Virus record (IMG/VR): IMGVR_UViG_3300046724_000152
Span: 1-64,000 of that record
Origin: a virus
DNA length: 64,000 nt
Direction: 5' to 3' (one strand)
Part shown: piece by piece, positions 42,393-64,000 of the stretch
Layout: every line of letters starts with the position of its first letter
How positions within the stretch are numbered: position 1 is the first letter of the stretch
Position numbers and translations under genes: made by a program
The notes under the pieces: generated by a model
Database searches by the model: none
Seen by the model: only the letters and a program-made list of their open reading frames with translations
Told to the model about the DNA's origin: nothing

Positions 42393-42700
42393 GACGGCGT
42401 CACCGTTGTGACCGGCTTGTCCGGTGGCGGTAAGGGATAGGCCGCCGCTCGCTGAGCGAGGGCATCGACCTGGATCATGAACTGCTGGTCCATGTAGGCG
42501 CTGCTTTGCAGCGAGACCCTGGGAACCCAGGCCGTCATCGGTGCTTGTTTGTTTCTCCAGACTTTCAGCATCAGCGTGTCGAATGGATTGTCGACCTTGA
42601 TATCGGCAAGGAGGCTGAACTTGGCCGCCTCGGCGGTGACAATGGGCAGCAGGATCGCTTGGATCTGTTCGAGGCTCTGGCCTGGATCGAATGGGTTCAT
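42389..42700 (-). CDS. hypothetical protein
   Basis: ATGA-coupled to pseI. Confidence 0.6.
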   Translation of the reverse strand: MNPFDPGQSLEQIQAILLPIVTAEAAKFSLLADIKVDNPFDTLMLKVWRNKQAPMTAWVPRVSLQSSAYMDQQFMIQVDALAQRAAAYPLPPPDKPVTTVTPS

Positions 42701-43701
42701 TTCAGTGCATCTCCCCTGCGGTACTTCATCCCGGCCTTGCGGCCTATCAAGCTGGGCAACAGCTTGCATGGTAACCCATAGCCCGGTCGGATCGAACCGA
42801 TATTCTCCAGCGAGAACTTCTCGCCCTTCTTGATGTCCTGGATGGCATAGAGACTCCGCCTGACCTGCCGGGTCGGATTGCTGTCCATCTTGGTCGGCTG
42901 CATGGCGGCATAGGTCTGCCTGACCTGATTAACCATGTGGGCAAAATCCCGTGGTCCCATCGAGAACTCGTCGTCCTCGGACACCACGTCCGGCAGATGG
43001 CCGAAGTGCTTCTCGATGATGCAGGCCCCGACCGCTACTGCTGCAATTGGCGCAAGGCTTCCTTCAGAATGGTCCGACAGTCCGACAACAGATCGTGGAA
43101 GCAGTCGCTGCAAGTGTCGGATCCCGCCAAGGTTAGATGTTTCGATGGTTCCAGGATATTCCGACATACAGTGCAGAAACGCGGCTTTGCCTCCGGAAGC
43201 CTGATCCGCGTCTTTGATCTCCTGGTCATTGCCCATCCCTGTAGAAATGATCATCGGTTTGCCGGTCGAGGCGGCATATTCAATCAATGGAATATCCACC
43301 AGTTCCATCGAGGCGATCTTGTAAGCCGGACAGTTCAACTTTTCCAAATGATCGATAGCCGACATATCGAACACCGAACTGAAGATGGTAATCCCGGAAT
43401 CCTTGGCCACCCGGTACAGATCCGGATGCCAGTCGAATGGGGTATGCGCCTTCTTGTATAGCTCCCACAGGGTCCGGCCCTTCCACAGCCCCTCCTGCAC
43501 GATGAAGTCAGGCTTGTTCAGTTCGAGCGTAATGGTCTGCGGCTCATAGCACTGGGTCTTGATCGCCGAGGCCTTGGCTAATTTGGCCATCCGGATGATC
43601 TTCTTGGCGTTATCCAATGAGCCGCCATGGTTGCAGCTCATCTCGGCAATCACATAGGGCGGAAACTTCGGCCCGATATTGACCTTGTCGATCTTCATCA
43701 A
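42697..43701 (-). CDS. pseI: pseudaminic acid synthase (NeuB family with C-terminal SAF domain)
   Basis: IAEMSCNHGG, AHTPFDWH, YKIASME, IISTGM, GLSDHS, IEKH, RRSLY, IRPGYGL. Confidence 0.9.
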   Translation of the reverse strand: MMKIDKVNIGPKFPPYVIAEMSCNHGGSLDNAKKIIRMAKLAKASAIKTQCYEPQTITLELNKPDFIVQEGLWKGRTLWELYKKAHTPFDWHPDLYRVAKDSGITIFSSVFDMSAIDHLEKLNCPAYKIASMELVDIPLIEYAASTGKPMIISTGMGNDQEIKDADQASGGKAAFLHCMSEYPGTIETSNLGGIRHLQRLLPRSVVGLSDHSEGSLAPIAAVAVGACIIEKHFGHLPDVVSEDDEFSMGPRDFAHMVNQVRQTYAAMQPTKMDSNPTRQVRRSLYAIQDIKKGEKFSLENIGSIRPGYGLPCKLLPSLIGRKAGMKYRRGDALK

Positions 43702-44842: not shown

Positions 44843-45973
44843 TCACTGGAGCGAGTCCCCTACTTCCTTGAAGATCTGACGCATGATCTTTCGCTGCTTC
44901 CTGTTGGGCGAATACGAGCAGACCTCGAAGGTCATCAGGTCGCAATCCTCCAGCGTTTCCGCTATTGGATGCACATCTGGCATGTTGAACACCCGATGTA
45001 GTGGCGGTGCGTAGCCCTCACGCAACGGCAGACCGAAGCTGTTGATGCGGGCAACGAACTGCCGACGATCCCAATGCCAGATCTTGGCGGCCCAGATGTA
45101 ATAGACATGATGGCAACCGTCCCGCTCGACCGGCGGATGGATGTTCGGATAGTCGAACACCATGTCGGTCAGCTCTAACGCCAGCTCCCTGCGATTCTCG
45201 ATGATACCCGGACCTTTGCTCAACTGCGCCGAGGCCAGAGCCGCAATCGGCTCCGTCATTCTGAGGTTCAGACCCATGATCCCAGGCCGCAGCTCGCCGT
45301 GATTGACGGCATCTCTTACCTTGAGGGCGAGGTCGTCGTCGTCGCTGACGACGATTCCTCCTTCCCCAGTCTGGAGATGTTTATGAATGTTAAGGCTAAA
45401 CACACCAAGATGGCCGACAGTGCCAGCGTAATGATCACCGACTTTGGCAAACGGACTCTGCGCATTGTCTTCGATCATCCAGACTTTGTTGTGGTCACAC
45501 CAACGTCTTATCTCTTCGAGATAAGCCGGATGACCGAACAGGTTGGTGACGATAACAGCTTTTGGCTTTCCCTTCGAACCGCCGATCTGCTTAAGATCCA
45601 TGGAGAATGTAACAGGCTCGATATCGATGAATTCTACATTTGCTCCAAGGATTTTAGCGCAGGATGCCGTGGCACTCATGGTGGTGGCAGGGCACCAGAC
45701 CCTATCTCCGGGCCCAATGCCGACCGCCATGCATGCCGCCATCAACCCCGATGTGGCAGAATTACAGGGCACGGCATGTCGTACACCGAACGTAGATTGC
45801 CACTCGTCTGCGAGGCGCTGAACCCAATAGCCACCAGCATGATGACCACCAAGATAACCACTAAAAGGACGGCCCAAGGTCGATAGTACATAGCTCCTCT
45901 CCAGCCAGTTGCGGGTCTCGAACGGCTTCAGCACCCCAAGCTTGCTCTTCAACTTCGGCCCTAGTTTGTGCAT
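44843..45973 (-). CDS. DegT/DnrJ/EryC1/StrS aminotransferase (PseC-like)
   Basis: NSATSGL, IEDNAQS, FSLNIHKHLQTGEGG (PLP lysine), GLNLRMTE. Confidence 0.88.
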   Translation of the reverse strand: MHKLGPKLKSKLGVLKPFETRNWLERSYVLSTLGRPFSGYLGGHHAGGYWVQRLADEWQSTFGVRHAVPCNSATSGLMAACMAVGIGPGDRVWCPATTMSATASCAKILGANVEFIDIEPVTFSMDLKQIGGSKGKPKAVIVTNLFGHPAYLEEIRRWCDHNKVWMIEDNAQSPFAKVGDHYAGTVGHLGVFSLNIHKHLQTGEGGIVVSDDDDLALKVRDAVNHGELRPGIMGLNLRMTEPIAALASAQLSKGPGIIENRRELALELTDMVFDYPNIHPPVERDGCHHVYYIWAAKIWHWDRRQFVARINSFGLPLREGYAPPLHRVFNMPDVHPIAETLEDCDLMTFEVCSYSPNRKQRKIMRQIFKEVGDSLQ

Positions 45974-46812
45974 CGTATGCTCTGGCACATCCTGGCGATG
46001 TCCTGCTCCATGTTCGGCAGGGTAAAGCCGAACTTGCTCTCGACCCTGGTCAGGTCCAGCCTTGTGTCGAGCGGACGTGGAATCCGCCCTGGGATACCGA
46101 CCGACTCCACCGGTCGCAGCCCCTTCAGGCTGTGGCCGAGGCCGTTGGCCAACAGCGCGGCAAACTTGGCTTTCGACATGCCGCTGGAAGAACCGAGATT
46201 GAAGGTGCCGGTTCGTGGCGTGTTGGCCATGGCCACCAGCCGTTCCGCCAAGGTCTGAGCCCACAGCGGACTGAACATGGCATCGGTATAGACATTGAAC
46301 TCGACGCCTGACTTCAGCTTGCCGATCATGAAATCGGCCAGACTGCTCCTGGCCGGTGATCGCGCTGACCCATAGAAATTGGTCCGCACGATCAGGTGGT
46401 TCTGCACCTTGGCGGCGGCAAACTCGCCCATGAACTTGCTCATGCCGTACATATTGATGGGATTCTCGCTCTTGGAATGCTCGCGGTGCGGGCCGTTGCC
46501 GGAGTACACCATGTCGGTTGATATATAAATCAACCGGCAGTTCCCCGGCATGTGAGCAGCGATGTTCTCCACCATGCCGCAGTTGTAGAGTACCGCCTTG
46601 TTCGGATCCTTCTCGCACTCATCGATGTCGGTCAGCGCCGCAGCATGAACGATCATCTGCGGCGCTGTTTTTGCCATCCACGTCCTGACGCTGTCCCAGT
46701 CGGTCAGATCGCAACTGCTTCTGGCCAAGCCCTCGACAGTGCCAAGCCTGGAGAATGCCATCTTCAGGTACGGCCCCAGCAGCCCGGTGTCGCCCGTGAC
46801 CAGGATCCTCAT
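45961..46812 (-). CDS. RmlD-like NAD(P)-dependent sugar-nucleotide reductase
   Basis: ILVTGDTGLLG, HAAALTDID.CE, YISTDMVY, YGMSK. Confidence 0.85.
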   Translation of the reverse strand: MRILVTGDTGLLGPYLKMAFSRLGTVEGLARSSCDLTDWDSVRTWMAKTAPQMIVHAAALTDIDECEKDPNKAVLYNCGMVENIAAHMPGNCRLIYISTDMVYSGNGPHREHSKSENPINMYGMSKFMGEFAAAKVQNHLIVRTNFYGSARSPARSSLADFMIGKLKSGVEFNVYTDAMFSPLWAQTLAERLVAMANTPRTGTFNLGSSSGMSKAKFAALLANGLGHSLKGLRPVESVGIPGRIPRPLDTRLDLTRVESKFGFTLPNMEQDIARMCQSIRCTN

Positions 46813-46829: not shown

Positions 46830-47036
46830 TTACTTGGCGAGGTGGGTCCAGATCTTGCCGATCCGGTTGTCGTACTTCTGGATGTGGTTGATGACGCGAC
46901 CGGATTCCCTGGGTGCCTCGCGAACGGCGATGGCCAACAGCTCCATCCACTTGTCGTTGTTCCTGACCCTGATCTTGGCCATCCGGTCGATCAGGCTGCG
47001 CTTGGTCTTCGGTAACTCTTTGCGCTTCGTTCTCAT
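46830..47036 (-). CDS. small basic hypothetical protein
   Basis: IRVRNNDKWMELLAIA...; ATGA overlap with pseB. Confidence 0.55.
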   Translation of the reverse strand: MRTKRKELPKTKRSLIDRMAKIRVRNNDKWMELLAIAVREAPRESGRVINHIQKYDNRIGKIWTHLAK

Positions 47037-47986
47037 AACATCCCTCTCAGTTGTTCGATGGTTAACCAATCGACATTAGTGTCGCTGGTGTAGCGCCATC
47101 CTGGAGGCACACGATTCTCGTAGTCTCTTTTTTTATGTCCAGGCTGGTCGATGCAGTAGAAGTTTGCGAAATCGGTTGTGTTCAGGCTTTCGTCTTCGGT
47201 GATCAGTGTCTCGTGGATTTTTTCTCCAGGTCTGATGCCGGTGTTGAATTCCAGAAATCCGTAATCGTCGCAAACAGCAACTGCAAGATCTCTGATTCTA
47301 ATCGATGGAATCTTCGGTATGAGAATCTTCGAGTGAATTCCGACACTAGCCAACTCCTCTGCGTAGAGGACCAGCTTAACGCTCTGATCCATGGTGATCC
47401 AGAACCGCGTCATTCTTTCATCGGTAACCTTGAGGACTTTGCCCTCCGCCTTTCGCTTCTTAAATAATGGAAGAACAGAACCCCGCGAACCGGCAACATT
47501 GCCATATCGCACAACATTGTAATGGCACCCGCCAGCGGCCAAGGCATTCGCTGCGACAAATATCTTTTCCGCTGCAAGCTTCGATGCACCATAAAGGTTG
47601 ATTGGATTAACGGCCTTATCTGTCGATAGTGCGACAACTCGCTGGACCTTAGCTCTGAGCGAAGCCTTAACCACATTCTCAGCCCCTGTGACATTGGTGG
47701 CGATGCATTCGGTTGGATTGTACTCGGCGGTCGGCACGATCTTCAGCGCGGCGGCATGGATCACGGTATCGATGCCACGCATTGCCATCTCCAGACGGTC
47801 GAGGTCGCGGACATCGCCAATGAAGAAGCGCAATCGCTCGTCGTTGAAGCTATGCGCCATCTCCTCCTGGGTATGTTCGCCCCTGGAGTAGATTGCGATT
47901 CGCTCGACACTCGGATCCTTGAGTATCCGACTGGCGAAGGCTTGGCCGAACGAGCCTGAGCCGCCAGTGATCAGGACGGATTTCAT
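47033..47986 (-). CDS. pseB: UDP-N-acetylglucosamine 4,6-dehydratase (inverting)
   Basis: ITGGSGSFG, FFIGDVRD, HAAALKIVPTAEYNP, STDKAVNPINLYGASK, RYGNVAGSRGSV, MTRFWIT, GIRPGEK. Confidence 0.92.
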   Translation of the reverse strand: MKSVLITGGSGSFGQAFASRILKDPSVERIAIYSRGEHTQEEMAHSFNDERLRFFIGDVRDLDRLEMAMRGIDTVIHAAALKIVPTAEYNPTECIATNVTGAENVVKASLRAKVQRVVALSTDKAVNPINLYGASKLAAEKIFVAANALAAGGCHYNVVRYGNVAGSRGSVLPLFKKRKAEGKVLKVTDERMTRFWITMDQSVKLVLYAEELASVGIHSKILIPKIPSIRIRDLAVAVCDDYGFLEFNTGIRPGEKIHETLITEDESLNTTDFANFYCIDQPGHKKRDYENRVPPGWRYTSDTNVDWLTIEQLRGML

Positions 47987-50019
47987 GCGGACTTTCTTAA
48001 GGATTGACCGGCGATAGTACCTTTGAGGCGACTCGACATGATGCCTTGCTGCAAGACATCATTGATTACATCCATGGTATGTTTATAGGCTCGACGGATG
48101 ATCTCGATCTCTGGATCTTTAATGGCGTAAGATACGCAATTAGCATTCAGGATCAGCACACCCATCCGCGCCATTTCCTGGGTGAACAGAGCCTGGATCT
48201 GTTCCTTGGTTGCGCCAAGGAAATCATGAACGTCCAGTTTCAGGAGCGGTGGCGAGCCACGAAACGCAATTGGACCAGAATAGTGTGATGTTCTTTCAAG
48301 TAGCGGTGCTTCAGATCGGATCTTCAATCCAACAGAGTATAGATGATCAAGGACGTTCTCCCGTTCCATCTTCTTGATAGTGGCGAGTGCAGCAGCCATC
48401 GACAGAGTGTCACCAAAGAAGGTGCCGGAGAAGAACACGCCGAGGTGGCCGTTCAGCATCTTCATGATCCCGGCATCACCGACCAGAGCCGAGATCGGCA
48501 TTCCGTTGGCCATCGACTTGCCGAAGCAAGCAAGATCGGGTGTGACACCAAAATACTCCTGACCACCGCCCATGGCGTAACGGAAGCCAGTCTGGATCTC
48601 ATCGAAGATCAGAATGATTTCGTTCCTGGTACACCATGACCGTAATGCCTGGAGGTATTCCCTGTCGTGGGTTGGCTCGACAATGACGGCGGCGACATCG
48701 CTCCAGTCTTCGCCCCAGTCTCTTAATTCATCGAGATCACCGTATTCGATCTTGTGTGACAGATTGGTTACGGATTCTGGAATTCCTTTGTTCTTTCCTT
48801 CCAGTGTTGAGGCTGACCAATCAGCCCAGCCATGGTAGGATCCGATTAGAATATGATCCCGTTCGGTGTAGGCCCTGGCCAGCCTGACTGCCGCCGATGT
48901 CACATCGGTACCGGACTTGCCGAACTGGACCTTATCGGCACAAGGAATCAGGTCGCACAGCTTCTCGCTTAACTCACATTCAAGCTTGGTGGCCAGACTG
49001 AAGCTCATGCCGCAGTTCAGTTGCCGCCGCACCGCCTCATCAACGTCAGGATCGCGGTAACCTAGGACAACAGGAAGTAGAGCATTAACAAGATCAACAT
49101 AGTCGTTCCCATCAACATCAAAAATCCTCGCACCATCGCCATGAGAGGCGAATAGTGGAGCCCCGCCCCTGGGATACCAAAGAGCAGACTTCGAGTATGT
49201 TTGGGACCCAAGGGGAATTGTCCTGGTGGCTCGTACCAGCAGCTCATCTGACCGTTGATATGTTCGTTCTGGTAATCGTTCTCCAGCGAGGTCCTGGTAG
49301 AACCGCTCATTTCGAATGGCTCCAGCATTGATTTGCCTCAGGTGTGGGTTGTCATCGAGGATCCGCATGATATGCATGCATGTCGGCGGGAAAGCCAGCG
49401 GCAGTTGCTTGGCGATTTCCTTGCACAGCTCGTAGTCTTCCTTGGTGTCGAGGACCCATCGCTCCTTGTGTGCCCCAGGAAACGGGCAAATCAGGTATTC
49501 CTGGGAGAACCGATCCCGGTTGCGGATGATCCACTGTGTCACACAGTCCCGATCTGTCTTCCTGGTGGTCTCTCTCCAGGCTGTTTCCAGCGCATCGAAG
49601 GTGAGACACTCGACATCCAATCCGTCTGGCCATGTCGGCTGGTTGGAACAGTACGAAGCACCCGTCGTCTTTTGTAGTTGGACGACCTGTCCGACCACAT
49701 AAGGGTCGAGGAACGGACAATCACAGGTGATTCGCAGGATAATGTCGGCTTTATAGTCTTTCGCACATTGATAATAGCGGTTCAGCACATCCTTTTCTGA
49801 GCCACGGAAGCAATCGATGCGGTTCTGTCTGCAATCCTTGGCTAGAACATCATCGGATTCCAGCGTGGTGGTGGCGATCACCACCTGATTGACTCCTGGA
49901 GAGTTGACTAACGCCCGCCAGACCCAGCGATACACCGGCATGCCTCCGAGTGGAGCCATCACCTTGCCAGGGAACCGCGTCGAGCCCATCCTAGCCTGGG
50001 CAATCGCAACGACTTTCAT
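47983..50019 (-). CDS. fusion: SpsF/PseF-type cytidylyltransferase plus class III aminotransferase
   Basis: QARMGSTRFPGKV, FRGSEKDVLNRY, RITCDCP; then DVDGNDYVD, FDEIQTGFR, PDLACFGKSMANGMP. Confidence 0.9.
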   Translation of the reverse strand: MKVVAIAQARMGSTRFPGKVMAPLGGMPVYRWVWRALVNSPGVNQVVIATTTLESDDVLAKDCRQNRIDCFRGSEKDVLNRYYQCAKDYKADIILRITCDCPFLDPYVVGQVVQLQKTTGASYCSNQPTWPDGLDVECLTFDALETAWRETTRKTDRDCVTQWIIRNRDRFSQEYLICPFPGAHKERWVLDTKEDYELCKEIAKQLPLAFPPTCMHIMRILDDNPHLRQINAGAIRNERFYQDLAGERLPERTYQRSDELLVRATRTIPLGSQTYSKSALWYPRGGAPLFASHGDGARIFDVDGNDYVDLVNALLPVVLGYRDPDVDEAVRRQLNCGMSFSLATKLECELSEKLCDLIPCADKVQFGKSGTDVTSAAVRLARAYTERDHILIGSYHGWADWSASTLEGKNKGIPESVTNLSHKIEYGDLDELRDWGEDWSDVAAVIVEPTHDREYLQALRSWCTRNEIILIFDEIQTGFRYAMGGGQEYFGVTPDLACFGKSMANGMPISALVGDAGIMKMLNGHLGVFFSGTFFGDTLSMAAALATIKKMERENVLDHLYSVGLKIRSEAPLLERTSHYSGPIAFRGSPPLLKLDVHDFLGATKEQIQALFTQEMARMGVLILNANCVSYAIKDPEIEIIRRAYKHTMDVINDVLQQGIMSSRLKGTIAGQSLRKSA

Positions 50020-50915
50020 TCCAGTCCCGCCTGTTTACGAACCTCAAGACAGATTTTGAGAACCTCAAGACCTTCTTCACCGGTACAGCCGATGGTTTCT
50101 TTGCCATCGATGCGGTCCAGGAATGCCTGCATTTCTTCAACATAATTTTCGTTCCAGGTGTCGAAGCCTTGATAACTATCAATAGGTCGCTCAATACCGA
50201 AGACGGCACCATTCCTATTCACAAGGTCACAGGAGATGCGACCATTATCACCAATGATGGTGAAGAACCTTAATTCCGGTCTTGTAACGTAATCCAGATG
50301 AACCGTAGTTCGACATCCTATGTCATGCGTTAAGAGAATATCCGATATATCGTCCTTGCCATTAGTGAGGCAAGTCGATGAGCCAGCAACGATAGCAGGG
50401 CCAAGAAGGTAAAGAGCAAGATCCAACTCATGGCTCCAATTGAGAATAACACCATCGCGTAGATAATGAGGTCGGTCGTTGTATTGACCGAGTGTAAAAT
50501 TGGCCCAGATTGGCTTTCCAATAATCCCAGCACCTAACCACTCCTTGGCTTTCTTGACGCAGCTATGGTAGCGGAGATTGTAGCCAACCATTGCTCTTTG
50601 GTTAAACGAGCTTGGCTCAACTATCGCCGGTAGAAGTATGTCGTATTCTTGTTGTGTGGTGGCGATTGGTTTCTCAATTAATATCGGTTTTGGATGTGTC
50701 ACTATAATATGTTTATAGTGCTGATCTGTCGGGCTGGCGATGACGAATGCATCCAAATTTATCAGCCTTGATTCCGGCCATAGCCTCCAGAAGGAAGGGA
50801 AATCCTCTGCGGCCACCTCGGGATCAAAACCAACAACATTATGGCCCATAGCCATGAGATTCTTGGCATGCCTCATGCCGATACTGCCAAGCCCAATCAC
50901 ACCGACTGTTTTCAT
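50016..50915 (-). CDS. Gfo/Idh/MocA oxidoreductase
   Basis: GLGSIGMRH, IEKP, VGYNLRY, SHELD. Confidence 0.88.
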   Translation of the reverse strand: MKTVGVIGLGSIGMRHAKNLMAMGHNVVGFDPEVAAEDFPSFWRLWPESRLINLDAFVIASPTDQHYKHIIVTHPKPILIEKPIATTQQEYDILLPAIVEPSSFNQRAMVGYNLRYHSCVKKAKEWLGAGIIGKPIWANFTLGQYNDRPHYLRDGVILNWSHELDLALYLLGPAIVAGSSTCLTNGKDDISDILLTHDIGCRTTVHLDYVTRPELRFFTIIGDNGRISCDLVNRNGAVFGIERPIDSYQGFDTWNENYVEEMQAFLDRIDGKETIGCTGEEGLEVLKICLEVRKQAGLE

Positions 50916-51064
50916 TTAGGCACACAATAGAGGTATTTCCATTTATCTTTATGAAGAGTCTCCATTGCGGCGCGACATGATTGCTCCGAATTAAACTCAA
51001 TAGAGTAAGGTACATATCCGCTATAAACAGCAACAAACATTATCAAGATCCATGGTGTCATCAT
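50912..51064 (-). CDS. small secreted/membrane peptide
   Basis: WILIMFVAV...EFNSEQSCRAA...CVPK; coupled overlaps. Confidence 0.55.
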   Translation of the reverse strand: MMTPWILIMFVAVYSGYVPYSIEFNSEQSCRAAMETLHKDKWKYLYCVPK

Positions 51065-51666
51065 TTCTTCTCCGGGAATGCGTTTTTGAGATCCTTCTTG
51101 AGGATCGTAACGCTGGTTTCGTTTTGAATGGTTCGCCCATAGAGCGAATAGCCGGGATGGCTGAGCCACAGATTGGCAAAGTCGTAGTGATACGAGAACA
51201 GCCCAGGCTTATGCTTGTAGGGGACTCGGTGTGCAGCGGCTGGCGTGAAGTCATGGACGATGAGAAATCCACCATCCTGTAGAACCTGATCTCCCTCGAA
51301 TGCGATTTCGAAATAGTCCTCGGGGTCACAGAGATAGAGACACCATCCGTAGATCAGAAGATCTGCCAAGTTTGGTGAGAAATGATGCGAGAGCTTGTCT
51401 GCGGTGCCAGCCCAGACCTGGACCTTGGATTGTCCTCTGGTCGAGATATAACACGGATCAATCCCCTCGACCTCACAGTCGTATCTCTGTTCGATGATGG
51501 CGAGCCGCCAGCCATTGGAACAGCCAATCTCAACCGCTCTCTTTGGTTTGATGTTGTATACCTCAAGCGCTTGCAGGACCGGATCGTTCTTTCCGGTCAG
51601 CTTGGCTTCATTGCGCTTCAGCCATTCGGCTCCCTCGCCAAGGGCGAAGACTCTAGATTGCTTCAT
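51061..51666 (-). CDS. class I SAM-dependent methyltransferase
   Basis: VEIGCSNGWRL, GIDP, GWCLYLCD, GGFLIVHDF. Confidence 0.85.
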   Translation of the reverse strand: MKQSRVFALGEGAEWLKRNEAKLTGKNDPVLQALEVYNIKPKRAVEIGCSNGWRLAIIEQRYDCEVEGIDPCYISTRGQSKVQVWAGTADKLSHHFSPNLADLLIYGWCLYLCDPEDYFEIAFEGDQVLQDGGFLIVHDFTPAAAHRVPYKHKPGLFSYHYDFANLWLSHPGYSLYGRTIQNETSVTILKKDLKNAFPEKK

Positions 51667-52178
51667 GGTGCGAATTTTCCAAAGGTCCACATGCTCATCG
51701 GCTGACCGTCAAACAGGAAATGACCGGGAACGACTGCCTCTTGGCTCATTCCATACTCGGTGCAAATTTTGATCATTTTGACGTTTGCTACCATGCAGCC
51801 CGCCTCGATTTTTCTGATTTGCTTTCTGGCAAACAGATAATCACAGACCGCCTTCCAGGCTTCGTAGCCATAGCCGTTGCCCCACTGGGTCCTGTCTCCG
51901 ATCATGATGGCGACATTGGCGAGGTTGTTTTTGTCGTCCACATTGACTGATATCGATCCAATCGCGGCATAGGATGTCAGCAACCGAATCGTATTGGTGC
52001 TGTTAGGTTCCACGGTCGCGGCGGAGTACCAATAATCAAGTTGGGTGTCCGCTGAGTGGGTGTAGTGCCGGTGTTCCGAGTATTTGACGACCTCTGGATC
52101 GTTCAGCCATTCCGCAAATTGCGGTGCATCCGAAGTGTGGACCGGACCAATCTCTAGACGTGGAGATTTCAGAATCAT
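51663..52178 (-). CDS. RimJ/RimL-type GNAT N-acetyltransferase (PseH-like)
   Basis: WLNDPEVVKY, IMIGDRTQWGNGYGYEAW, RKIEAG. Confidence 0.8.
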   Translation of the reverse strand: MILKSPRLEIGPVHTSDAPQFAEWLNDPEVVKYSEHRHYTHSADTQLDYWYSAATVEPNSTNTIRLLTSYAAIGSISVNVDDKNNLANVAIMIGDRTQWGNGYGYEAWKAVCDYLFARKQIRKIEAGCMVANVKMIKICTEYGMSQEAVVPGHFLFDGQPMSMWTFGKFAP

Positions 52179-52373: not shown

Positions 52374-52432
52374 TTTGATTGCCCACAACTATCTCGCACC
52401 CTATAGTTCGCTATCCACAGGTCCGTGCTTTC

Positions 52433-54025
52433 ATGATCCTCAACAAGATGGCCAAGGCTGCTACGCAGATTGCCAAGTTGAAGGAGCGTGATGTCTATGA
52501 AGGCACCCTGATCGAGTTTGCCGAATACGTCTGGCCGGTGGTGGAACCTGCGATTCCCTTCATCCGTGGCTGGGCCATCGAGGCGATTGCCGAGCATCTC
52601 CAGGCTGTTACCGATGGCTACATCAAGCGGCTGTTGATGAACGTGCCGCCGGGATTCACCAAGTCCCTGATGACCGATGTGTTCTGGCCCGCCTACGAGT
52701 GGGGTCCCAAGAACATGCCGTGGCTGCGGTATGTCTGCGCTTCCTACTCCAACCACCTGACCGAACGAGACAACATGCGATGCCGCAACATCGTGATCTC
52801 GGATCGCTATCAGCGGATGTGGGGCTCCCGGTTCAAGATCTCCAACGAGCAGTTCACCAAGATCAAGTTCGCCAACGACCATACCGGGTGGAAGCTGGCG
52901 ACCTCGGTGGGCGGCATCGGCGTCGGCGAGCGGGGGGATCGGTTCATCATTGACGACCCGAACAACACCATGGACATGGAGTCCGAACAGGTCCGGGACA
53001 CCACCAACCTGTGGTTTACCGAGGTCGTTCCCGACCGCCTGAACAACCCCCAGGAAAGCGCAATTGTCATTATACAACAAAGGCTTCATGAGGATGATGT
53101 GAGCGGAATCGCGCTGTCTCGGGAGATGGGATACACCCACCTGATGATCCCGATGGAGCATGACACATCAAGGCATTGTGTGACTGTTTTGGGGCTAAAT
53201 GATGATAATAGCCCCAAGACCTGGGAGGATCCACGGAAAGAAGACGGCGAGCTGGCTTGGCCGGAGCGGTTTACCCAGAAGGTTTGCGAAGATCTGGAGC
53301 GGGATAAGGGTCCCCACGCCTGGGCCGGTCAGTACATGCAGAGCCCGGAACCCCGTGGCGGGTCGATCATCAAGCGGGATTTCTGGCAGTTGTGGGAGGA
53401 AGACAAGTTTCCGGAGTTTGAGTACATCCTGGGGTCGGTGGACACCGCCTATACGGACAAAGAAGAGAACGATCCCAGTGCCTTGACCATCTGGGGTGTG
53501 TTCCGCGACATCAACAAGAACCCCAAGATGATGCTGATGTATGCTTGGCAGGAAAGATTACAGTTTCACGAGCTGCTTCAGAAGCTTATCGCCACCTGCA
53601 CCATCGGCATCGGACCCAAGAAGGGCCCCCAGTTCCGGGTGGACCGGCTGCTGATCGAGTCCAAGGCCAGCGGGCTGTCGGTTGTCCAGGAACTGCATCG
53701 CCTGATCCAGGCCACCGGCAAGATGGGTGTCGAGTCGAATTCTGTCAAAGGCGACAAATACGCCCGACTGCAATCGGTTCAGCATCTATTCTCCGATGGC
53801 ATGATCTATGCGCCTGACCGCTCCTTTGCCGACATGGTGATCGATCAGTGTGCGGTGTTTCCCAAGGGATCACGCGACGACTTGGTCGACTCGACCTCTC
53901 AGGCGCTGAAGTATCTGCGTGACACCGGCTTTGCATTGCGGCGCGAGGAATACTCTGTAGAAGCTCATGAGGAAATGCTGTACCGTGGTCCATCTTATAA
54001 CGCTCCGATTTACGGTAATTATTGA
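52433..54025 (+). CDS. terL: terminase large subunit
   Basis: NVPPGFTKS (Walker A), IIDDP (Walker B), QRLHEDD, nuclease SVDTAY, IESKASG, DDLVDSTSQAL. Confidence 0.95.
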   Translation: MILNKMAKAATQIAKLKERDVYEGTLIEFAEYVWPVVEPAIPFIRGWAIEAIAEHLQAVTDGYIKRLLMNVPPGFTKSLMTDVFWPAYEWGPKNMPWLRYVCASYSNHLTERDNMRCRNIVISDRYQRMWGSRFKISNEQFTKIKFANDHTGWKLATSVGGIGVGERGDRFIIDDPNNTMDMESEQVRDTTNLWFTEVVPDRLNNPQESAIVIIQQRLHEDDVSGIALSREMGYTHLMIPMEHDTSRHCVTVLGLNDDNSPKTWEDPRKEDGELAWPERFTQKVCEDLERDKGPHAWAGQYMQSPEPRGGSIIKRDFWQLWEEDKFPEFEYILGSVDTAYTDKEENDPSALTIWGVFRDINKNPKMMLMYAWQERLQFHELLQKLIATCTIGIGPKKGPQFRVDRLLIESKASGLSVVQELHRLIQATGKMGVESNSVKGDKYARLQSVQHLFSDGMIYAPDRSFADMVIDQCAVFPKGSRDDLVDSTSQALKYLRDTGFALRREEYSVEAHEEMLYRGPSYNAPIYGNY

Positions 54026-56562
54026 TGGCTCCTCGCACCAACTCGATGCGGTTGGACGATCCCTATCCTGAGGTTGTGCCGCCAGCATTGACCTTGGTGA
54101 AAGGCGAGAGCGATGAGATGGGGCCGGACTCCACCTCGTTCGAGGACGGTGCCCTCAAGATCGAGCATCCTGATGGATCGGTCACCATCGATCTGAATCC
54201 TCCGGATGAGAAGGATGATGGCCCAGAGACCACCGAGTTCGACCGCAATCTCGCGCTTAAGATGTCCGATGATGAACTCAGCAGCATCGCCTCGACGCTG
54301 ATCGAAGGCATCGACAGAGACAATCAATCCCGCTCGAAATGGTTAGAGACCAGGGCTCTTGGCATCAGTCTGTTGGGGCTGGAGCTTGAAAAGCCGAGAG
54401 CCGGAGCCGGATCCGAGTCGGCCCCCATCGAGGGCATATCAACAGTCCGCCATCCTATTCTTCTGGAGGCCACTGTTTCCTTCCAGGCCACCGCCAGGGC
54501 CGAGCTTCTCCCCGCATCTGGGCCGGTTAAGGTCCGCAACGATGCTCCATCTCCGCCAAAGGAAGTCGTTCAGCAAACCTCCGCCCAGCAACAGCTCATC
54601 GAGAGCATGCAGTCGCAGGATGAATTGGCTCAGGCGCTGGAGAAAGATCTCAATCACTATCTGACTGTGACAGCCACCGAGTATGTCCCCGACACCGACC
54701 GCATGCTGTTCTACGTTGGCTTCGGCGGCGACGGATTCAAGAAGGTCTACAACTGTCCACTGAGACGAAGGCCGGTATCCGAGTCCATCGATGCGGAAGA
54801 CCTGATCATCTCTAACACCACGACGGATATCCAGAACTCAGGCCGCATTACCCATCGCATCAAGATGCGGCCTTCGGTTCTGAAGCGCATGCAGATCATG
54901 GGGGTTTACCGGGATGTGGACCTAAGTCCCCCGGCAATAACAACGACAAGCCCCGTCGACAAGAAGATGGAGGCGATCTCCGGTGTGACCGAGGCCAACA
55001 AGCTGCCGGAAGATCGTGACTATGAAGTCTACGAGACCTACTGCGAACTTGATCTCGATGAGTTCGCCCCGAAGGGACTCAAGGGCAAGGGGCTTCCCCT
55101 GCCATACCGCGTAACTATCGAGAAAGACTCCAGGAAGATCCTCGATCTTCGTCGCAACTGGCAGGAAGACGATGAGCAGGCGCTTGCCAAGCAATTCTTC
55201 GTACAGTTTCCGTTCATTCGCGGACTGGGCTTCTACGGTATCGGCTTCATCCACCTCCTCGGCAACACCGCCAACGCCCTTACCGCCGGATGGCGCGAAG
55301 CCCTCGACGCTGGAATGTTCGCCAACTTCCCTGGCTTTATCTACAGCAAAGGCCTTGGCCGACAACTCTCCAATCAATTCCGTATCCCTCCTGGCGGCGG
55401 GATAGGTCTCGATGTCGGGCCGGGTCAGAGAATCCAGGATTCGGTCATGCCGGTCCCTTATAAAGAAGCCGGTGCTGGCTTCATCAGTCTTCTTACTCAC
55501 ATCGAAGAGACCGGCAGACGCCTTGCCTCCACCGCCGAAGTCAGTGTTGGCGAGGGCAAGCAAGACGCCCCCGTGGGCACGACCTTGGCTCTTATCGAGC
55601 AGGCATCGAAGGTCATGGATTCGGCCCACAAGCGTTTACACGCCTCCCAGGCCGAAGAGTTCAAGCTCCTGAAGTGCCGGTTCAAGGAAGATCCAGAAGC
55701 ACTCTGGCGGCATAACAAGAAGACCACCATCAAGTGGAAGAAGGATCAGTTCATCCAGGCCCTGGACGACTGCGAGCTGGTCCCGGTGGCCGATCCGAAC
55801 AACCCGACCAGCCTGCATCGCTTGGCCAAGGGTGCCATCATCAAGCAGCTTCAGGCCGCCAATCCGGCGCTTTATGACGAAGTTGCCGTCGATATGCGGG
55901 TGATGCGGATCTCCGACATCGATCCTGCTGGCCTGTTCAAGGCCTCCCCGACTCCACCCCCGCCAGATCCACGCATGGTAGCGATCCAGGAGAAGGCCAA
56001 GGCGCAAGGCCAGATGAGCCAGATCCAGCTTCTGGAGACCAGGATCAAGGCCGCGACGGCGGCTCAGGCCATCCAGGACAAGGCCCAGGATCGCGCCTCC
56101 CGCGAGAAGATCGAGGGGATGAAAATCCAGCTTGAGGGTCTCAAGATCAAGGAAGAGCAACTCATTCATGCCCATGACGCCGAGAAGGACATCATCTCCA
56201 AGATGCATGAGATGAACATGGAGCATCAGGCCCATCAGCTAGAGCTTCATAAGGGTGTGGTTGAGAAGGCTCAGGAACTACAGCACAGCGATCTGGATAA
56301 ATCCCAGGAGCTGCATCACAACGATATGGCCAAGGCCCAGGAGTTGCGTCACAGCCAGATCGATACGATGCACAGTGCTGCAACCAACCAAGCCCAGTCC
56401 GATCATGACCGCCAACTGTCCAGACAGAAGCATGATGCCGAGATGTCTCGTGCCAATGCCAAGCACGAACAGGATATGGCCCACGCCAGGGAGATGCATG
56501 CTGCGAAGCTTGAAGCTGCCAAGCAGATGGCGAAAGTTAAACCCAAAGCCAAGAAGACATGA
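54025..56562 (+). CDS. portal protein
   Basis: Follows terL; HPILLEA, FKKVY, GFYGIG, DAGMFAN, APVGTTLALIE; long coiled-coil C-terminus. Confidence 0.88.
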   Translation: MAPRTNSMRLDDPYPEVVPPALTLVKGESDEMGPDSTSFEDGALKIEHPDGSVTIDLNPPDEKDDGPETTEFDRNLALKMSDDELSSIASTLIEGIDRDNQSRSKWLETRALGISLLGLELEKPRAGAGSESAPIEGISTVRHPILLEATVSFQATARAELLPASGPVKVRNDAPSPPKEVVQQTSAQQQLIESMQSQDELAQALEKDLNHYLTVTATEYVPDTDRMLFYVGFGGDGFKKVYNCPLRRRPVSESIDAEDLIISNTTTDIQNSGRITHRIKMRPSVLKRMQIMGVYRDVDLSPPAITTTSPVDKKMEAISGVTEANKLPEDRDYEVYETYCELDLDEFAPKGLKGKGLPLPYRVTIEKDSRKILDLRRNWQEDDEQALAKQFFVQFPFIRGLGFYGIGFIHLLGNTANALTAGWREALDAGMFANFPGFIYSKGLGRQLSNQFRIPPGGGIGLDVGPGQRIQDSVMPVPYKEAGAGFISLLTHIEETGRRLASTAEVSVGEGKQDAPVGTTLALIEQASKVMDSAHKRLHASQAEEFKLLKCRFKEDPEALWRHNKKTTIKWKKDQFIQALDDCELVPVADPNNPTSLHRLAKGAIIKQLQAANPALYDEVAVDMRVMRISDIDPAGLFKASPTPPPPDPRMVAIQEKAKAQGQMSQIQLLETRIKAATAAQAIQDKAQDRASREKIEGMKIQLEGLKIKEEQLIHAHDAEKDIISKMHEMNMEHQAHQLELHKGVVEKAQELQHSDLDKSQELHHNDMAKAQELRHSQIDTMHSAATNQAQSDHDRQLSRQKHDAEMSRANAKHEQDMAHAREMHAAKLEAAKQMAKVKPKAKKT

Positions 56563-59790: not shown

Positions 59791-60474
59791 TTGGCCAACA
59801 CCAACAACCCATTCGGATTCCGGCAGTACGGGCAGCGTGAAGGTTCCGCGCCAACCGCCGGTATGGAACGAGCTTGGATTTCTTCGGCTTACACCAACCC
59901 GGTGTTTACCGGAGATGCGGTGGTGCGAAGCACCACGCCGAACGGGGCTCAGTATCTGGTGTCGGGCGGCAGCTCGCAGGGTACCGGAGCCACCACCCTT
60001 GGTGCATCGGTGGCCGTCAACCAGGGCATCTTCCTGGGCTGCAAGTATTACAATTCGAACGTGGGCCGCACCGTCTGGAACAGCTATTGGCCGGGGTCTG
60101 GCGCATCGGGTGACGTAGAAGTCTACGTCTGCACCAACCCGGAACAGCTTTATACGGTGCAGAGCACTTCCGGTGCGGTTCTCGGCTCTTCCAACATTGG
60201 CATGATTCTTCCGCAGTCCACGCTGCTTTCGAGCCAAGGCAATACGCTCACCGGCATCAGCAATATGACGGTCACTTCCAGTCTCGTCACCGGCCTGTCA
60301 TCTGGCGGCCAGTGGATGATCGTGGATGTGTATTCCAACGTCGCACCTCCTGGCGTCAACGGCACCTCAACGACTGCCGAGGGCCTTCAGATCGTCGTGG
60401 TGCAGCCGAACAGTGCCATGCGCCGCACTCTGTACGGTGTCGGTGGCGGCTTGGGTGTTGCTTACTCAAGCTAA
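59791..60474 (+). CDS. capsid decoration / minor capsid protein (TTG start)
   Basis: SD GAGGAGG; MANTNNPFGFR...VFTGDAV...GIFLGCKY; directly upstream of the MCP; very Ser/Thr-rich. Confidence 0.75.
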   Translation: MANTNNPFGFRQYGQREGSAPTAGMERAWISSAYTNPVFTGDAVVRSTTPNGAQYLVSGGSSQGTGATTLGASVAVNQGIFLGCKYYNSNVGRTVWNSYWPGSGASGDVEVYVCTNPEQLYTVQSTSGAVLGSSNIGMILPQSTLLSSQGNTLTGISNMTVTSSLVTGLSSGGQWMIVDVYSNVAPPGVNGTSTTAEGLQIVVVQPNSAMRRTLYGVGGGLGVAYSS

Positions 60475-60566: not shown

Positions 60567-61481
60567 ATGCCCGTCGCACTTGGACAGATTCGTGACCTTC
60601 TGCTTCCTGGCCTCTGGGGTATCAGCGGCAAATACAACATGATCGAGCGTCAGTGGCCGAAGATCTTCCGGCAGACTGACTCCAACATGGCCCTGGAACG
60701 TCGCGCCGCGATGCGCTTCCTGGGCTTTGCTCAGCTCAAGACGGAAGGTGCCCCGACCGCATTCGACAACGGTGCCGGTCAGCGCTTCGTCTATAACGCC
60801 GAGCACTTCGAGATCGGCCTGGGTTATGCGATCACCCGCAAGGCCATTGACGACAACCTCTACAAATCAGAGTTCGGCCCGTCCAATGACGGACTCATGG
60901 AGTCCTTCAAGGAGACCGAAGAGATCTATGCCGCCAACATCTTCAACACCGGATCCACCTTCAATACTTCGGTGCAGGGTGACGGCGTGGCCTTGTTCAG
61001 CTCCTCGCATCCGACCGATGCCGGTCTGATCTCCAACCGGCCATCTCCAGATGTGGACCTGAACGAAACCTCTCTGCTCAACGCCTTGATCACCATTCGC
61101 ACCACCTGGACCGACAACGCCGGTCTGAAGATCCATGCCAGGGGCCGCAAGGTCCTGATCCCACCGAACCTGGAGCCGATTGCGCTTCGGTTGTTCCGTT
61201 CCGAGCTTCGTCCGGGGACGACCACCAACGACGTGAATGCCATCCTGGGTATGAACGATTCCTTGAAGGAAGGGTTCATGGTGTTCGACTATCTGACCTC
61301 CGGGTTTGGCTGGTTCATCCTGACTAACCATGACGGCCTGATCTTCTTCAACCGCAAGCCGTTCGAGATGGATATGTCGGTCGAGTTCACCACCGACAAC
61401 CTCCTGGTCAAGGGCTACCAGCGGTATGTGCCATCGTACTATGACTGGCGAGCCGTCTGGGGCACCTACCCGACAAGCTGA
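60567..61481 (+). CDS. major capsid protein (HK97 fold, Mu gpT-like family)
   Basis: LLLPGL, GFAQLKTEG, LGYAITRKAIDDNLY, GDGVALFSSSHP, RYVPSYYDWRAVWG. Confidence 0.9.
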   Translation: MPVALGQIRDLLLPGLWGISGKYNMIERQWPKIFRQTDSNMALERRAAMRFLGFAQLKTEGAPTAFDNGAGQRFVYNAEHFEIGLGYAITRKAIDDNLYKSEFGPSNDGLMESFKETEEIYAANIFNTGSTFNTSVQGDGVALFSSSHPTDAGLISNRPSPDVDLNETSLLNALITIRTTWTDNAGLKIHARGRKVLIPPNLEPIALRLFRSELRPGTTTNDVNAILGMNDSLKEGFMVFDYLTSGFGWFILTNHDGLIFFNRKPFEMDMSVEFTTDNLLVKGYQRYVPSYYDWRAVWGTYPTS

Positions 61482-61609: not shown

Positions 61610-61942
61610 ATGGCCCAATCCGTAACACTTGCGTCGTCAGCCGGGACGGCTGCGATAGTTCTGAACCCGGTGGCCAGGACAACCACGGTGATGTTGAGCC
61701 AGAGCGTGGCGACATCGACTGGAGTCATTCAGATCGACGTATCTCTTGACGATCCGTCGATTCCTGGCGGCCCCGCTACCACTTGGGCGTTGCTGAGTTC
61801 GGCAGCCGCGATGACTTCATCGACGGTCGGGTCTCTGATCTATACCGTCCTGACGCCGATTGCTCAGGTCAGGCTCAACTCGACGGCCAACAACACGGCC
61901 AACACCTTCACGCTCAAAGCCCTGCAATCAGTCTCGGCATAA
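61610..61942 (+). CDS. Ser/Thr-rich small virion protein
   Basis: SD AAGGA; beta-rich; VSLDD...VRLN pattern shared with 62421-62789. Confidence 0.7.
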   Translation: MAQSVTLASSAGTAAIVLNPVARTTTVMLSQSVATSTGVIQIDVSLDDPSIPGGPATTWALLSSAAAMTSSTVGSLIYTVLTPIAQVRLNSTANNTANTFTLKALQSVSA

Positions 61943-62420: not shown

Positions 62421-62789
62421 ATGCCCTACGCGACAGTCACTCTGACCTCAGCCTCGACCAACACCTCCCCGGTAGCCAACCTCAACTGGATTGGCGGCAA
62501 GCCCACAACGGCTACGGTCCTGGCGACTTCGGTGTCGAGTGGTGCATTCACTCTCCAGTATACGCTGGACGATTTACAGCGGGTTCCATCTACCTTAGTG
62601 GCTTGGTTTGGTGTCAGCAGCGCGATTGGGCAGATCGGCACGATCTTTAGCGCTTCCGGTGCTTATCCAGACGGGGTGACTTATACATTCCCCGGTCCGA
62701 TTGCTGGGCTCAGGCTTTTCTCAAGCGCGGCGAATAATGTCAACAATGGCCCGATCTCCCTGAAGGTCCTACAGGGTGAGGGCTGGTGA
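62421..62789 (+). CDS. Ser/Thr-rich small virion protein
   Basis: SD GAGGT; FTLQYTLDD...PIAGLRL. Confidence 0.7.
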   Translation: MPYATVTLTSASTNTSPVANLNWIGGKPTTATVLATSVSSGAFTLQYTLDDLQRVPSTLVAWFGVSSAIGQIGTIFSASGAYPDGVTYTFPGPIAGLRLFSSAANNVNNGPISLKVLQGEGW

Positions 62790-62793
62790 GCCG

Positions 62794-63171
62794 ATGTCGG
62801 TTATCTATAGTCCAACCATCATCGATGCGCGTCTACAAGGCGTTGTAACTGGGTTAGGGAATGCATCGCACTTACTTCTAAATGCAGGTGGAACCACGGT
62901 GTCTACGATTCAAATGGGCAATCCAGCCGGTACCGTCAGTGGCGGTGTCCTGACCTTTGGCGGAACACTGCTGGATACGTCCGCCGCTGGCACCGGCAAT
63001 GTAGACAGCGCCGTCATCAACGATTCCCTGGGAAACTTGGCTATCTCCGGTCTAACGGTGGGGATACCGGGCGGCTCCCAGGACATAATCATTAGCAATG
63101 GGCTGAATTCCACGTTAATTACTGCGGGGCAAATCGTTGCATTGCTCTCAGCACAAATAACGGGATCCTGA
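62794..63171 (+). CDS. Gly/Ser/Thr-rich virion protein
   Basis: MSVIYS...ARL...PAGTVSGGVLTF. Confidence 0.7.
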   Translation: MSVIYSPTIIDARLQGVVTGLGNASHLLLNAGGTTVSTIQMGNPAGTVSGGVLTFGGTLLDTSAAGTGNVDSAVINDSLGNLAISGLTVGIPGGSQDIIISNGLNSTLITAGQIVALLSAQITGS

Positions 63172-63174
63172 TTC

Positions 63175-64000
63175 ATGCCCAAGCTCACCGAAACCACCAA
63201 CGACCAGCTTCACAAGCGCGGCCCTGGACGGCCTCCGAAGGCCCAAGCCGAAGGCAACGGCAGCTTCCATCTGACTCCTCCACATGAGCCTCTCCCTGGA
63301 GAGTCGTTCGAGATTCCAACCGTGACCTATTCTCCACAGGTCAATTTTACTCAGATCAATACCGTACCAGTTTCATCCGAGGAACCGGCAGCCGCTCCAG
63401 CCCCGGCGCTGAAGATCGCCTTGATTGGCACCGCACCCTCCAGCCGGATGCTGGCCCCCTTCAATGATCCGACTTGGCAGATCTGGTCCTGTTCGCCTGG
63501 AAACATGGGCATCGTGCCGCGTTACGATGCATGGTTCGAGATCCATGGCAGCCTCTTATGGCCCGAGAACAAGCACTATGGCGAGCCCTACATCAAATTC
63601 CTCAGCGAGCAGAAGTGCCCGGTCTACATGCAGGACCAGCGCTATTGCAGGAATGCTTTGACCTACCCGATGCGGGAGATGGTCCAGGAGTTTGGACCGT
63701 ATTTCTTCACCTCGTCGTTTTCCTGGATGATTGCCCTGGCGATCAGCAAGGGAGCCACCGAGATTGGCCTCTACGGCATCGATATGGCGAGCCGCGACGA
63801 GTACATCCTGCAACGCCCAGGCATCTATCATTTCTTTAATGAGGCCAAGAAACGTGGTATCAAGGTCTTCGCTCCTTATGAGAGCGACATCATGCAGCCT
63901 CCGGGTCTGTATGGATATTCTGAAGTGACGCCGTATGGCCGAAAGATGATCGCCAGAGCCATGGAGTTGAAAGCAAGACGCGACGAAATGGTGAAGCAGC
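63175..64000 (+). CDS. CstII(GT42)/GT29/Maf-like nonulosonate glycosyltransferase (3' partial, not in the ORF track)
   Basis: Hand translation: KIALIGTAPSS...WSCSP...RYDAWFEIH...FTSSFSWMIALAISKGATEIGLYGIDM, paralleling the sialyltransferase GNGPS and TSG..M...AIALGYKEIYLSGIDF motifs. Confidence 0.65.
   Translation, partial: MPKLTETTNDQLHKRGPGRPPKAQAEGNGSFHLTPPHEPLPGESFEIPTVTYSPQVNFTQINTVPVSSEEPAAAPAPALKIALIGTAPSSRMLAPFNDPTWQIWSCSPGNMGIVPRYDAWFEIHGSLLWPENKHYGEPYIKFLSEQKCPVYMQDQRYCRNALTYPMREMVQEFGPYFFTSSFSWMIALAISKGATEIGLYGIDMASRDEYILQRPGIYHFFNEAKKRGIKVFAPYESDIMQPPGLYGYSEVTPYGRKMIARAMELKARRDEMVKQ

Follow-up and report, generated by a model that had tools for sequence, protein, structure and literature searches.

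A phage-borne family of sialyltransferase-fold proteins linked to pseudaminic-acid-type sugar genes, and its possible role in virion glycosylation

The stretch of DNA analysed here, hereafter the window, comprises bases 1–64000 (64,000 nt) of IMG/VR virus record IMGVR_UViG_3300046724_000152, an uncultured soil phage of 75,507 bp with an IMG/VR completeness rating of 100%. At its end lies a plus-strand open reading frame (ORF) that begins with an ATG at 63175 and is still open where the window ends; in the full record its stop falls at 64131, giving a protein of 318 amino acids (aa). Only 4 nt separate the stop of the upstream gene from this ATG, and 10 nt lead to the next gene. We take the start codon to be correct because the N-terminal peptide that it yields, MPKLTxTTND, is kept in 100 of 120 close homologues. 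A preliminary description of the window had picked out this open-ended frame and three motifs in it, and the full record bears it out on each: KRGPGRPPK at residues 14–22, GTAPSS at 85–90 and TSSFSWMIALAISKGATEIGLYGIDM at 179–204. From its predicted fold, its motifs and its coupling to sugar genes, the 318-aa product is probably a transferase that uses ulosonates activated with cytidine monophosphate (CMP), and belongs to a new phage-borne family. The gene is laid out as follows, with confidence of the structural model given as predicted local distance difference test (pLDDT) values.

63175..64000, continuing to 64131 in the record, plus strand: sialyltransferase-fold gene, 318 aa
63175..63408, plus strand: N-terminal extension, residues 1–78, predicted to be disordered (pLDDT mostly 43–57, 74 near its end)
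63409..63900, plus strand: predicted catalytic core, residues 79–242, delimited by conservation and by profile and structural alignment (model residues 78–242)
63931..64000, continuing to 64074 in the record, plus strand: long C-terminal helix, residues 253–300 (DSSP helix)

The core contains a putative nucleotide loop (IALIGTAPSS), followed by WxIWxCSPGN, WFEIH with the invariant H124, FTSS...A.AI..G..EIGLYGIDM and DEY..QRPG. Across 30 homologues at 55–69% identity, the invariant positions are G85-T-A-P-S-S-R91, C106-S-P-G-N110, W120-F-E122, H124, F178-T-S-S-F182, G201-I-D-M-A-S-R207, E209-Y210, Q213-R-P-G216 and E236-S-D238; over 124 cluster representatives, with identity down to 30%, they are G85, H124, G201, E209 and Y246. 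As we read these alignments, the GTAPSS and TSS...GID motifs are not chance occurrences, and the strict invariance of the polar residues H124, E209 and Y246 argues for catalysis. The conserved unit spans residues ~79–300. Its C-terminal helix, whose LxGAL(E/D)D block, G288 included, hardly varies among family members, is likely to be a coiled coil for oligomerisation or docking. The protein has no hydrophobic or membrane segment, the maximum 19-residue Kyte-Doolittle window being 1.13.

The 78-residue N terminus is specific to this clade, because 79% of distant representatives enter the core by residue 15. It comprises the clade-specific MPKLTETTND, the AT-hook-like KRGPGRPPK (63214–63240) and an HEPL motif; considered as a possible shared tag, the MPKLT peptide and HEPL motif turned out to be confined to this one ORF. 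The AT-hook-like segment that the preliminary description had singled out is present without being a family feature, since its GRP element is shared by 31 of 120 close homologues and, among distant ones, by 4 of 150. The fuller pattern K/R-R-x-P-G-R-P-x-K is found in two real ORFs only, this gene and ORF 59070–59642 (at 59103–59129); both genes belong to the head module, the motif lies ~13 residues from the N terminus in each, and the two copies may act as a common tag for docking or for contact with DNA.

An AlphaFold2 model built on a 30-sequence alignment of close homologues reaches a pLDDT of ~85–96 over most of residues 80–240, with a dip to 65 at residues 201–210. Searched with Foldseek against the PDB, it returned CstII as the top match (E 4e-6, probability 1.0), followed by a Pasteurella sialyltransferase, Cst-I, thiamin pyrophosphokinases, ST6GalNAc2, an archaeal HPPK, Maf and ST8SiaIII. 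Structural alignment, in Z units, gave 11.4 for Maf (5mu5; root-mean-square deviation 2.6 Å over 150 residues), 11.2 for CstII at 20–21% identity, 10.9 for Cst-I, 10.7 for the Pasteurella enzyme 9c08, 10.2 for a thiamin pyrophosphokinase, 10.1 for the HPPK MptE, 9.2 for SteA and about 7 for GT29 enzymes. The modelled fold is that of the sialyltransferase/Maf/MptE superfamily, and the sialyltransferase/Maf-type fold that had been proposed, with Foldseek as the suggested check, is the one recovered; an unrelated fold was not. With the kinases trailing the transferases by only about one Z unit, fold alone does not settle activity.

Sequence comparison leans to the transferases over the kinases. 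A profile of the 124 family members, run against PDB sequences, has 9c08 and CstII as its best matches, both sub-threshold (E 0.2–0.75; for CstII, E 0.65–0.75 over 30 residues). These matches fall on TS..A.AI..G..EI.L.G.D, which corresponds to CstII residues 131–159, and place the family's E-Y on the N-Y-A of the Pasteurella enzyme. A profile of close homologues gave chance matches only against the same PDB sequences. The 318-aa protein has no Pfam-A match (hmmscan, E up to 10) and no PHROG or NCBIfam match; scanned individually, the 124 members share no Pfam family, and PF01973, searched over the whole phage genome at E up to 10, has no match there. 'Sialyltransferase/Maf-like', the wording of the preliminary description, is thus apt for the fold and not for family membership, as PF06002, PF00777 and PF01973 all go unmatched: these transferase-like proteins form a separate family of the superfamily and do not detectably belong to GT42, GT29 or PF01973.

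Comparison with each relative makes the separation concrete. From GT42, the protein has the single-domain modified GT-A fold and the CMP-binding motifs, with G85-T-A-P-S-S90 in place of the G-N-G-P-S loop and T179-S-S...G201-I-D203 in place of T-S-G...G-I-D, but it does not match the PF06002 sequence model. Set against CstII and Cst-I and the Pasteurella multocida lipooligosaccharide (LOS) sialyltransferase (GT42; 1ro7, 2p2v, 9c08), its lid after the G-I-D block is apparently much shorter, and it adds the long C-terminal helix and, in this clade, the 78-residue disordered N terminus. Its likely donor is of pseudaminic type rather than N-acetylneuraminic acid (Neu5Ac), and its gene sits among virion genes rather than in an LOS locus. 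With Maf (5mu5) it has in common the fold of the central catalytic domain and a genetic linkage to a pseudaminic/legionaminic acid (Pse/Leg) biosynthesis cluster, whereas Maf proteins run to ~600–1,200 aa with flanking helical domains (most sampled Maf-like frames are 680–1,219 aa) and act on flagellin, which the phage does not have. The GT29 sequence model (PF00777) and the sialyl motifs L, S, III and VS are not found in the phage protein. The MptE and thiamin pyrophosphokinase kinases share its fold but not its context, there being no folate or thiamin genes among the annotated ORFs.

The family is large and essentially confined to uncultured phages. A word-indexed search found 914 homologues, none with a Pfam domain and none informatively named, and an exhaustive phmmer search of 1.84 billion cluster representatives returned 3,274 at E <=0.001 and 1,875 at <=1e-10, almost all of them from uncultured phages. 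In a phage database of 50,697 records the sole family match is in Microcystis phage Mvi-Yong1342-1, at 35% identity; this homologue (XAN61349.1; PP496355.1; L002:5902–6705) lies directly upstream of terS and is labelled 'type 11 methyltransferase', probably a misannotation. Of the carriers, this phage looks the easiest to work with in the laboratory. Among the genomes of 185,579 prokaryote species the family occurs at nine loci, all in metagenome-assembled genomes and mostly on short contigs, which gave no host assignment; around the one in a 1.7-Mb alphaproteobacterial contig, no sugar genes could be recognised. A search of the ESM Atlas returned unnamed viral clusters only, the nearest named cluster, MptE-like, being a weak lead. 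Longer fused forms (558–2,000 aa) were looked for and none was found, which is weak evidence. Some phages carry at least two tandem copies of the gene, as in L128 (10004–11616), where the second copy is a 455-aa ORF, and G252 (the record behind L243); such copies could serve two sugars or separate initiation and extension steps.

A cluster of seven sugar genes occupies 42.7–52.2 kb on the minus strand, with PseB, PseI and the CMP-sugar synthetase 13–20 kb upstream of the transferase-like gene.

42697..43701, minus strand: pseudaminic acid synthase PseI (TIGR03586, 367.5 bits against a cut-off of 340.25; Pfam NeuB, E 7e-66)
44843..46618, minus strand: PseC/LegC-like aminotransferase domain (residues 263–542; Pfam DegT_DnrJ_EryC1, E 2e-50) fused to an unidentified 260-residue N-terminal domain
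47033..47986, minus strand: UDP-GlcNAc 4,6-dehydratase (inverting) PseB (TIGR03589, 409.9 bits against a cut-off of 407.75)
47983..50019, minus strand: CMP-sugar synthetase domain (CTP_transf_3) fused to a class-III aminotransferase (Pfam)
50016..50915, minus strand: GFO/IDH/MocA oxidoreductase (Pfam)
51061..51690, minus strand: methyltransferase-like gene (Pfam)
51663..52178, minus strand: GNAT acetyltransferase (Pfam)

With PseB and PseI above their NCBIfam equivalog cut-offs, the pseudaminic-like sugar cluster first described is confirmed. The claim that the system is complete finds support at equivalog level for those two genes: the PseC-like and GNAT genes fall below equivalog cut-offs (the 44843..46618 product reaches 143 bits with the PseC model TIGR03588, far short of the cut-off), matches of the GNAT and CTP_transf_3 genes are at Pfam level only, and no PseG was seen among the ORFs scanned. 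Of the steps of the bacterial CMP-pseudaminic acid pathway (PseB, PseC, PseH, PseG, PseI, PseF), the phage thus has PseB, PseI, a PseC-like enzyme, a GNAT enzyme and CTP_transf_3, but unlike in bacteria its aminotransferase and its cytidylyltransferase are both fusion proteins. The genes at 50016..52178 probably supply tailoring and N-acetylation steps, and the extra class-III aminotransferase, the GFO-family oxidoreductase and the methyltransferase-like gene suggest a modified sugar derivative. The aminotransferase half of 47983–50019 resembles glutamate-1-semialdehyde aminomutase, an unusual architecture for a nonulosonate pathway.

Four independent lines tie the transferase-like gene to sugar genes: co-occurrence within the clade, co-occurrence in other lineages, a reverse test, and neighbourhood together with a fusion. 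Of 26 near-complete genomes that hold the family, drawn from sets that differ in portal type, 24 have NeuB, against a baseline of 3 among the 50,697 records of the phage database. In the 75-kb clade with SU10-type portals the count is 11 of 12, and in a second set, ~41–57-kb and 82–94-kb records reached through homologues 35–45% identical, it is 13 of 14. The two portals tested in the second set, those of L097 and L121, fit the T7-type Head-tail_con model, which sets the structural modules of the two sets apart. CTP_transf_3 was found in 25 of the 26 near-complete virus genomes searched, including all 12 of the 75-kb clade, each of which also has the fused CTP_transf_3 long frame (673–715 aa). 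In the reverse direction, 13 of 18 viral contigs of at least 40 kb selected for NeuB alone carry the family, as do seven of the nine near-complete ones. The preliminary description had proposed co-occurrence with pseI across phages as a check, and it is seen both ways. In the second set the gene lies ~2–6 kb downstream of NeuB on the same strand in 12 of 16 checked loci, with PseB and a cytidylyltransferase detected beside it in several, and a terminase-sized ORF directly follows it in the loci examined (a Pfam-confirmed TerL in L097). One homologue, P0270, fuses a cytidylyltransferase (CTP_transf_3, KdsB/PseF-like) to the transferase-like domain; it is absent from IMG/VR, and its cluster holds only ~2.4–2.6-kb contigs.

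The transferase-like gene itself lies in an operon that runs from terminase, portal, scaffold-like and capsid genes through small proteins to the transferase-like gene, fibres, adaptors, a nozzle-like protein and ejection proteins.

52379..54025, plus strand: terminase large subunit (Pfam Terminase_6C), start of the late operon
54022..56562, plus strand: SU10-type portal (Pfam SU10_portal)
59791..60474, plus strand: 227-aa protein with 23% Ser+Thr, upstream of the capsid gene; conserved in the clade, no PHROG match
60567..61481, plus strand: major capsid protein (phrog_371 'major head protein', E 2.4e-7; 75–90% identity across the clade)
61610..61942, plus strand: 110-aa protein with 30% Ser+Thr, the genome's highest, just after the capsid gene; candidate acceptor, no PHROG match
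62421..62789, plus strand: 122-aa protein with 24% Ser+Thr, a paralogue of ORF 61610–61942 (33% identity, E 1e-3)
62794..63171, plus strand: 125-aa protein with 22% Ser+Thr, 4 nt upstream of the transferase-like gene; predicted virion fold, candidate acceptor or docking partner

The richness in Ser and Thr that the preliminary description had seen in neighbouring genes is real: at 22–30% Ser+Thr they stand against a genome median of 11.8%. Among 74 scored ORFs, five of the seven richest are 61610–61942, 62421–62789, 59791–60474, 64142–64660 (23%) and 62794–63171. By tblastn, 8 of 10 related genomes keep the block formed by o62794, the transferase-like gene, o64142 and o64664 at this place, after the capsid gene and ahead of the adaptors. 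The product of 62794..63171 would be a particle component, because its model (pLDDT 86) best resembles the Agrobacterium phage 7-7-1 tail-fibre protein 9rkv_A (E 4.8e-4, template modelling score 0.70) and, further down, neck proteins of Sf14 and Bas63. A small ORF with at least 20% Ser+Thr lies directly upstream of the transferase-like gene at 36 of 53 loci in this clade and at 50 of 73 in other lineages. These ORFs form four families, with median Ser+Thr of 21–32% and no detectable homology between them (hhalign probabilities <5%); judged by sequence, those of different lineages appear analogous and not demonstrably related. The 86 cases amount to about four independent observations, because kin share synteny.

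Other features of the operon deserve mention. Two genes downstream of the transferase-like gene, genome ORF 64664–64966 (L003:2665–2967) encodes a 100-aa Cys-rich, zinc-ribbon-like protein with CxxC-type pairs, present in 8 of 10 relatives. In the fibre region, an 805-aa ORF at 70742–73159 (L003:8743–11160), with similar ORFs in relatives, has many W-x-x-P-W-S-x-P-x-R-x-K-P repeats, and the ORFs at 69742–70740 (L003:7743–8741) and 74288–75505 (L003:12289–13506) are extremely glycine-rich, with GGGGG runs and G-x-G repeats. ORF 131–589 and genome ORF 73949–74284 (L003:11950–12285), which flank the record ends, are paralogues (37% identity, E 4e-17), consistent with a circularly permuted structural operon.

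In the model that we propose, the gene product would be a soluble cytoplasmic glycosyltransferase with the fold of CstII (GT42) and Maf. Early in infection, the phage pathway (PseB, the PseC-like aminotransferase, GNAT, PseI and the cytidylyltransferase, together with tailoring enzymes) would yield a CMP-activated sugar of the pseudaminic acid type. The transferase, produced late and translationally coupled to virion genes, would bind this CMP-sugar with two motifs, the G-T-A-P-S-S loop and the T-S-S...G-I-D...E-Y block, and would glycosylate particle proteins ahead of or in the course of their assembly, either on Ser/Thr hydroxyls or on a glycan, much as Maf modifies flagellin in the cytoplasm. 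The likeliest acceptors would be the small Ser/Thr-rich proteins encoded around the gene. For the full model, a CMP-nonulosonate transferase acting on virion proteins, we regard the balance as even. Decoration of the virion was already envisaged in the preliminary description; its fold, sugar-gene link and place in the virion operon have stood up, and we still infer the acceptor from position and composition.

Several observations weigh against this model. No Pfam, NCBIfam or PHROG model recognises the transferase-like protein, and hhalign against 15 Maf domains from 201 alphaproteobacterial genomes gives a probability of 58% over the same 25-column block only. By sequence there is no conserved His after the G-I-D block, where the catalytic His188 of CstII would presumably fall; the invariant H124 lies in another strand than that position. 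No PseG was identified among the scanned ORFs. Microcystis phage Mvi-Yong1342-1 and two ~50-kb records (G015 and G017) carry the family without NeuB or CTP_transf_3, and G004, a complete 75-kb genome (the record behind L015), is without NeuB; two complete NeuB-bearing phages are without the family. G004, which has terminal repeats, retains both the transferase-like gene and the fused cytidylyltransferase and is without the flanking o62794, o64142 and o64664. Evidently the enzyme is able to use a host-made donor, and other transferases exist. Finally, richness in Ser and Thr is common in exposed phage proteins, glycosylated or not.

The carriers without sugar genes are in keeping with the main rival, in which the same chemistry is turned on the host surface: lipopolysaccharide core, capsule, flagellin, pilin or an S-layer protein. 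Remodelling of the infected cell could, for example, block adsorption of progeny or rival phage to infected cells or debris, and those carriers would depend on a CMP-ulosonate made by the host. The best matches in sequence and structure, CstII and the Pasteurella enzyme, have lipooligosaccharide as their acceptor, and the acceptor of Maf is flagellin. The position of the gene speaks for the particle instead: it is coupled inside the late virion operon, not placed among early or lysogeny genes, and in other lineages it abuts the terminase gene. Nor is there a flippase, polymerase or export gene among the annotated ORFs, or a membrane segment in the protein, and we consider a host-surface acceptor unlikely, if the most serious of the alternatives. 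A free or lipid-linked sugar oligomer or polymer, made as by a polysialyltransferase, or a small-molecule acceptor is a much more distant prospect. CstII is bifunctional and adds sialic acid onto sialic acid, according to PDB entry titles, and the tandem paralogues in L128 and G252 could split initiation from extension; yet lipid-carrier, initiating transferase and export genes are all missing from the annotated ORFs, and the persistent pairing with small Ser/Thr-rich ORFs suits a protein acceptor better.

The fold is also compatible with a protein that is no glycosyltransferase at all, be it a pyrophosphokinase of the MptE or thiamin pyrophosphokinase type, a nucleotide-binding protein or a dead assembly scaffold. 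Such a role is improbable in our view: it would leave the two-way link to NeuB and the CMP-sugar synthetase, and the cytidylyltransferase fusion, without explanation. Identity in structural alignment is 8–15% to the kinases as against 20–21% to CstII, the family profile finds its best PDB sequence matches among sialyltransferases, with the sugar-nucleotide motif as the aligned part, and the strictly invariant polar H124, E209 and Y246 speak for catalysis. Phage DNA, finally, might be the acceptor, with a nonulosonate on a modified base and the AT-hook-like segment at residues 14–22 as DNA anchor. To our knowledge, no nonulosonate-modified DNA has been described. Location of the gene directly beside terminase genes in several lineages would fit, and phage glycosyltransferases acting in DNA hypermodification are known (bioRxiv 10.1101/2023.12.21.572611). 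Against DNA, most members are without the whole N-terminal extension, and with it the AT-hook, and the genome has no Thymidylat_synt and no Tet_JBP match, that is, neither a thymidylate-synthase-like hydroxymethylase nor a TET/JBP dioxygenase to make a hydroxymethyl base. Raised as an alternative in the preliminary description, DNA is thereby weakened to a very slim prospect.

Nonulosonic acids, which include sialic, pseudaminic and legionaminic acids, are cell-surface sugars, and we know of few transferases identified for the bacterial ones. In our literature search, neither a phage nonulosonate transferase nor virions bearing nonulosonates turned up in any paper; in one review, pseI appears solely in the abbreviation legend of a table. 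The only precedent that we traced for the proposed virion decoration is glycosylation of mycobacteriophage capsids and tails, where phage-encoded glycosyltransferases modify capsids and tail tubes (PMC10877033). Mycobacteriophage virion glycosylation is the subject of Freeman et al. 2023 (Cell Host Microbe), as cited in PMC10877033 and PMC11256854. The phage described here differs in carrying a pathway for a nine-carbon acidic sugar and a transferase of sialyltransferase fold. The mycobacteriophage enzymes, for their part, are reportedly ordinary GT-A and GT-B types that use common host nucleotide sugars.

Because Pfam, NCBIfam and PHROGs have no model that detects the family, and its sole homologue in the phage database is called a methyltransferase, genome annotation misses the whole system. 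The family would add thousands of candidate pseudaminyl transferases, small and soluble, for use in glycoengineering and in tracing the fate of these sugars. That many uncultured phages, spread over at least two lineages that differ in their structural modules, make a pseudaminic-acid-type sugar and coat their own particle proteins with it by means of this family is a proposition to which we give even odds. Were the virion the acceptor, these particles would wear an acidic sugar coat whose production takes up about 12% of the genome. Such 'sialylated' virions would mean that the phage itself sets its surface charge, stickiness, host recognition or visibility to immune and defence systems, with a bearing on phage adsorption, on the persistence of particles in soil and mucus, and on antibody recognition of therapeutic phages.

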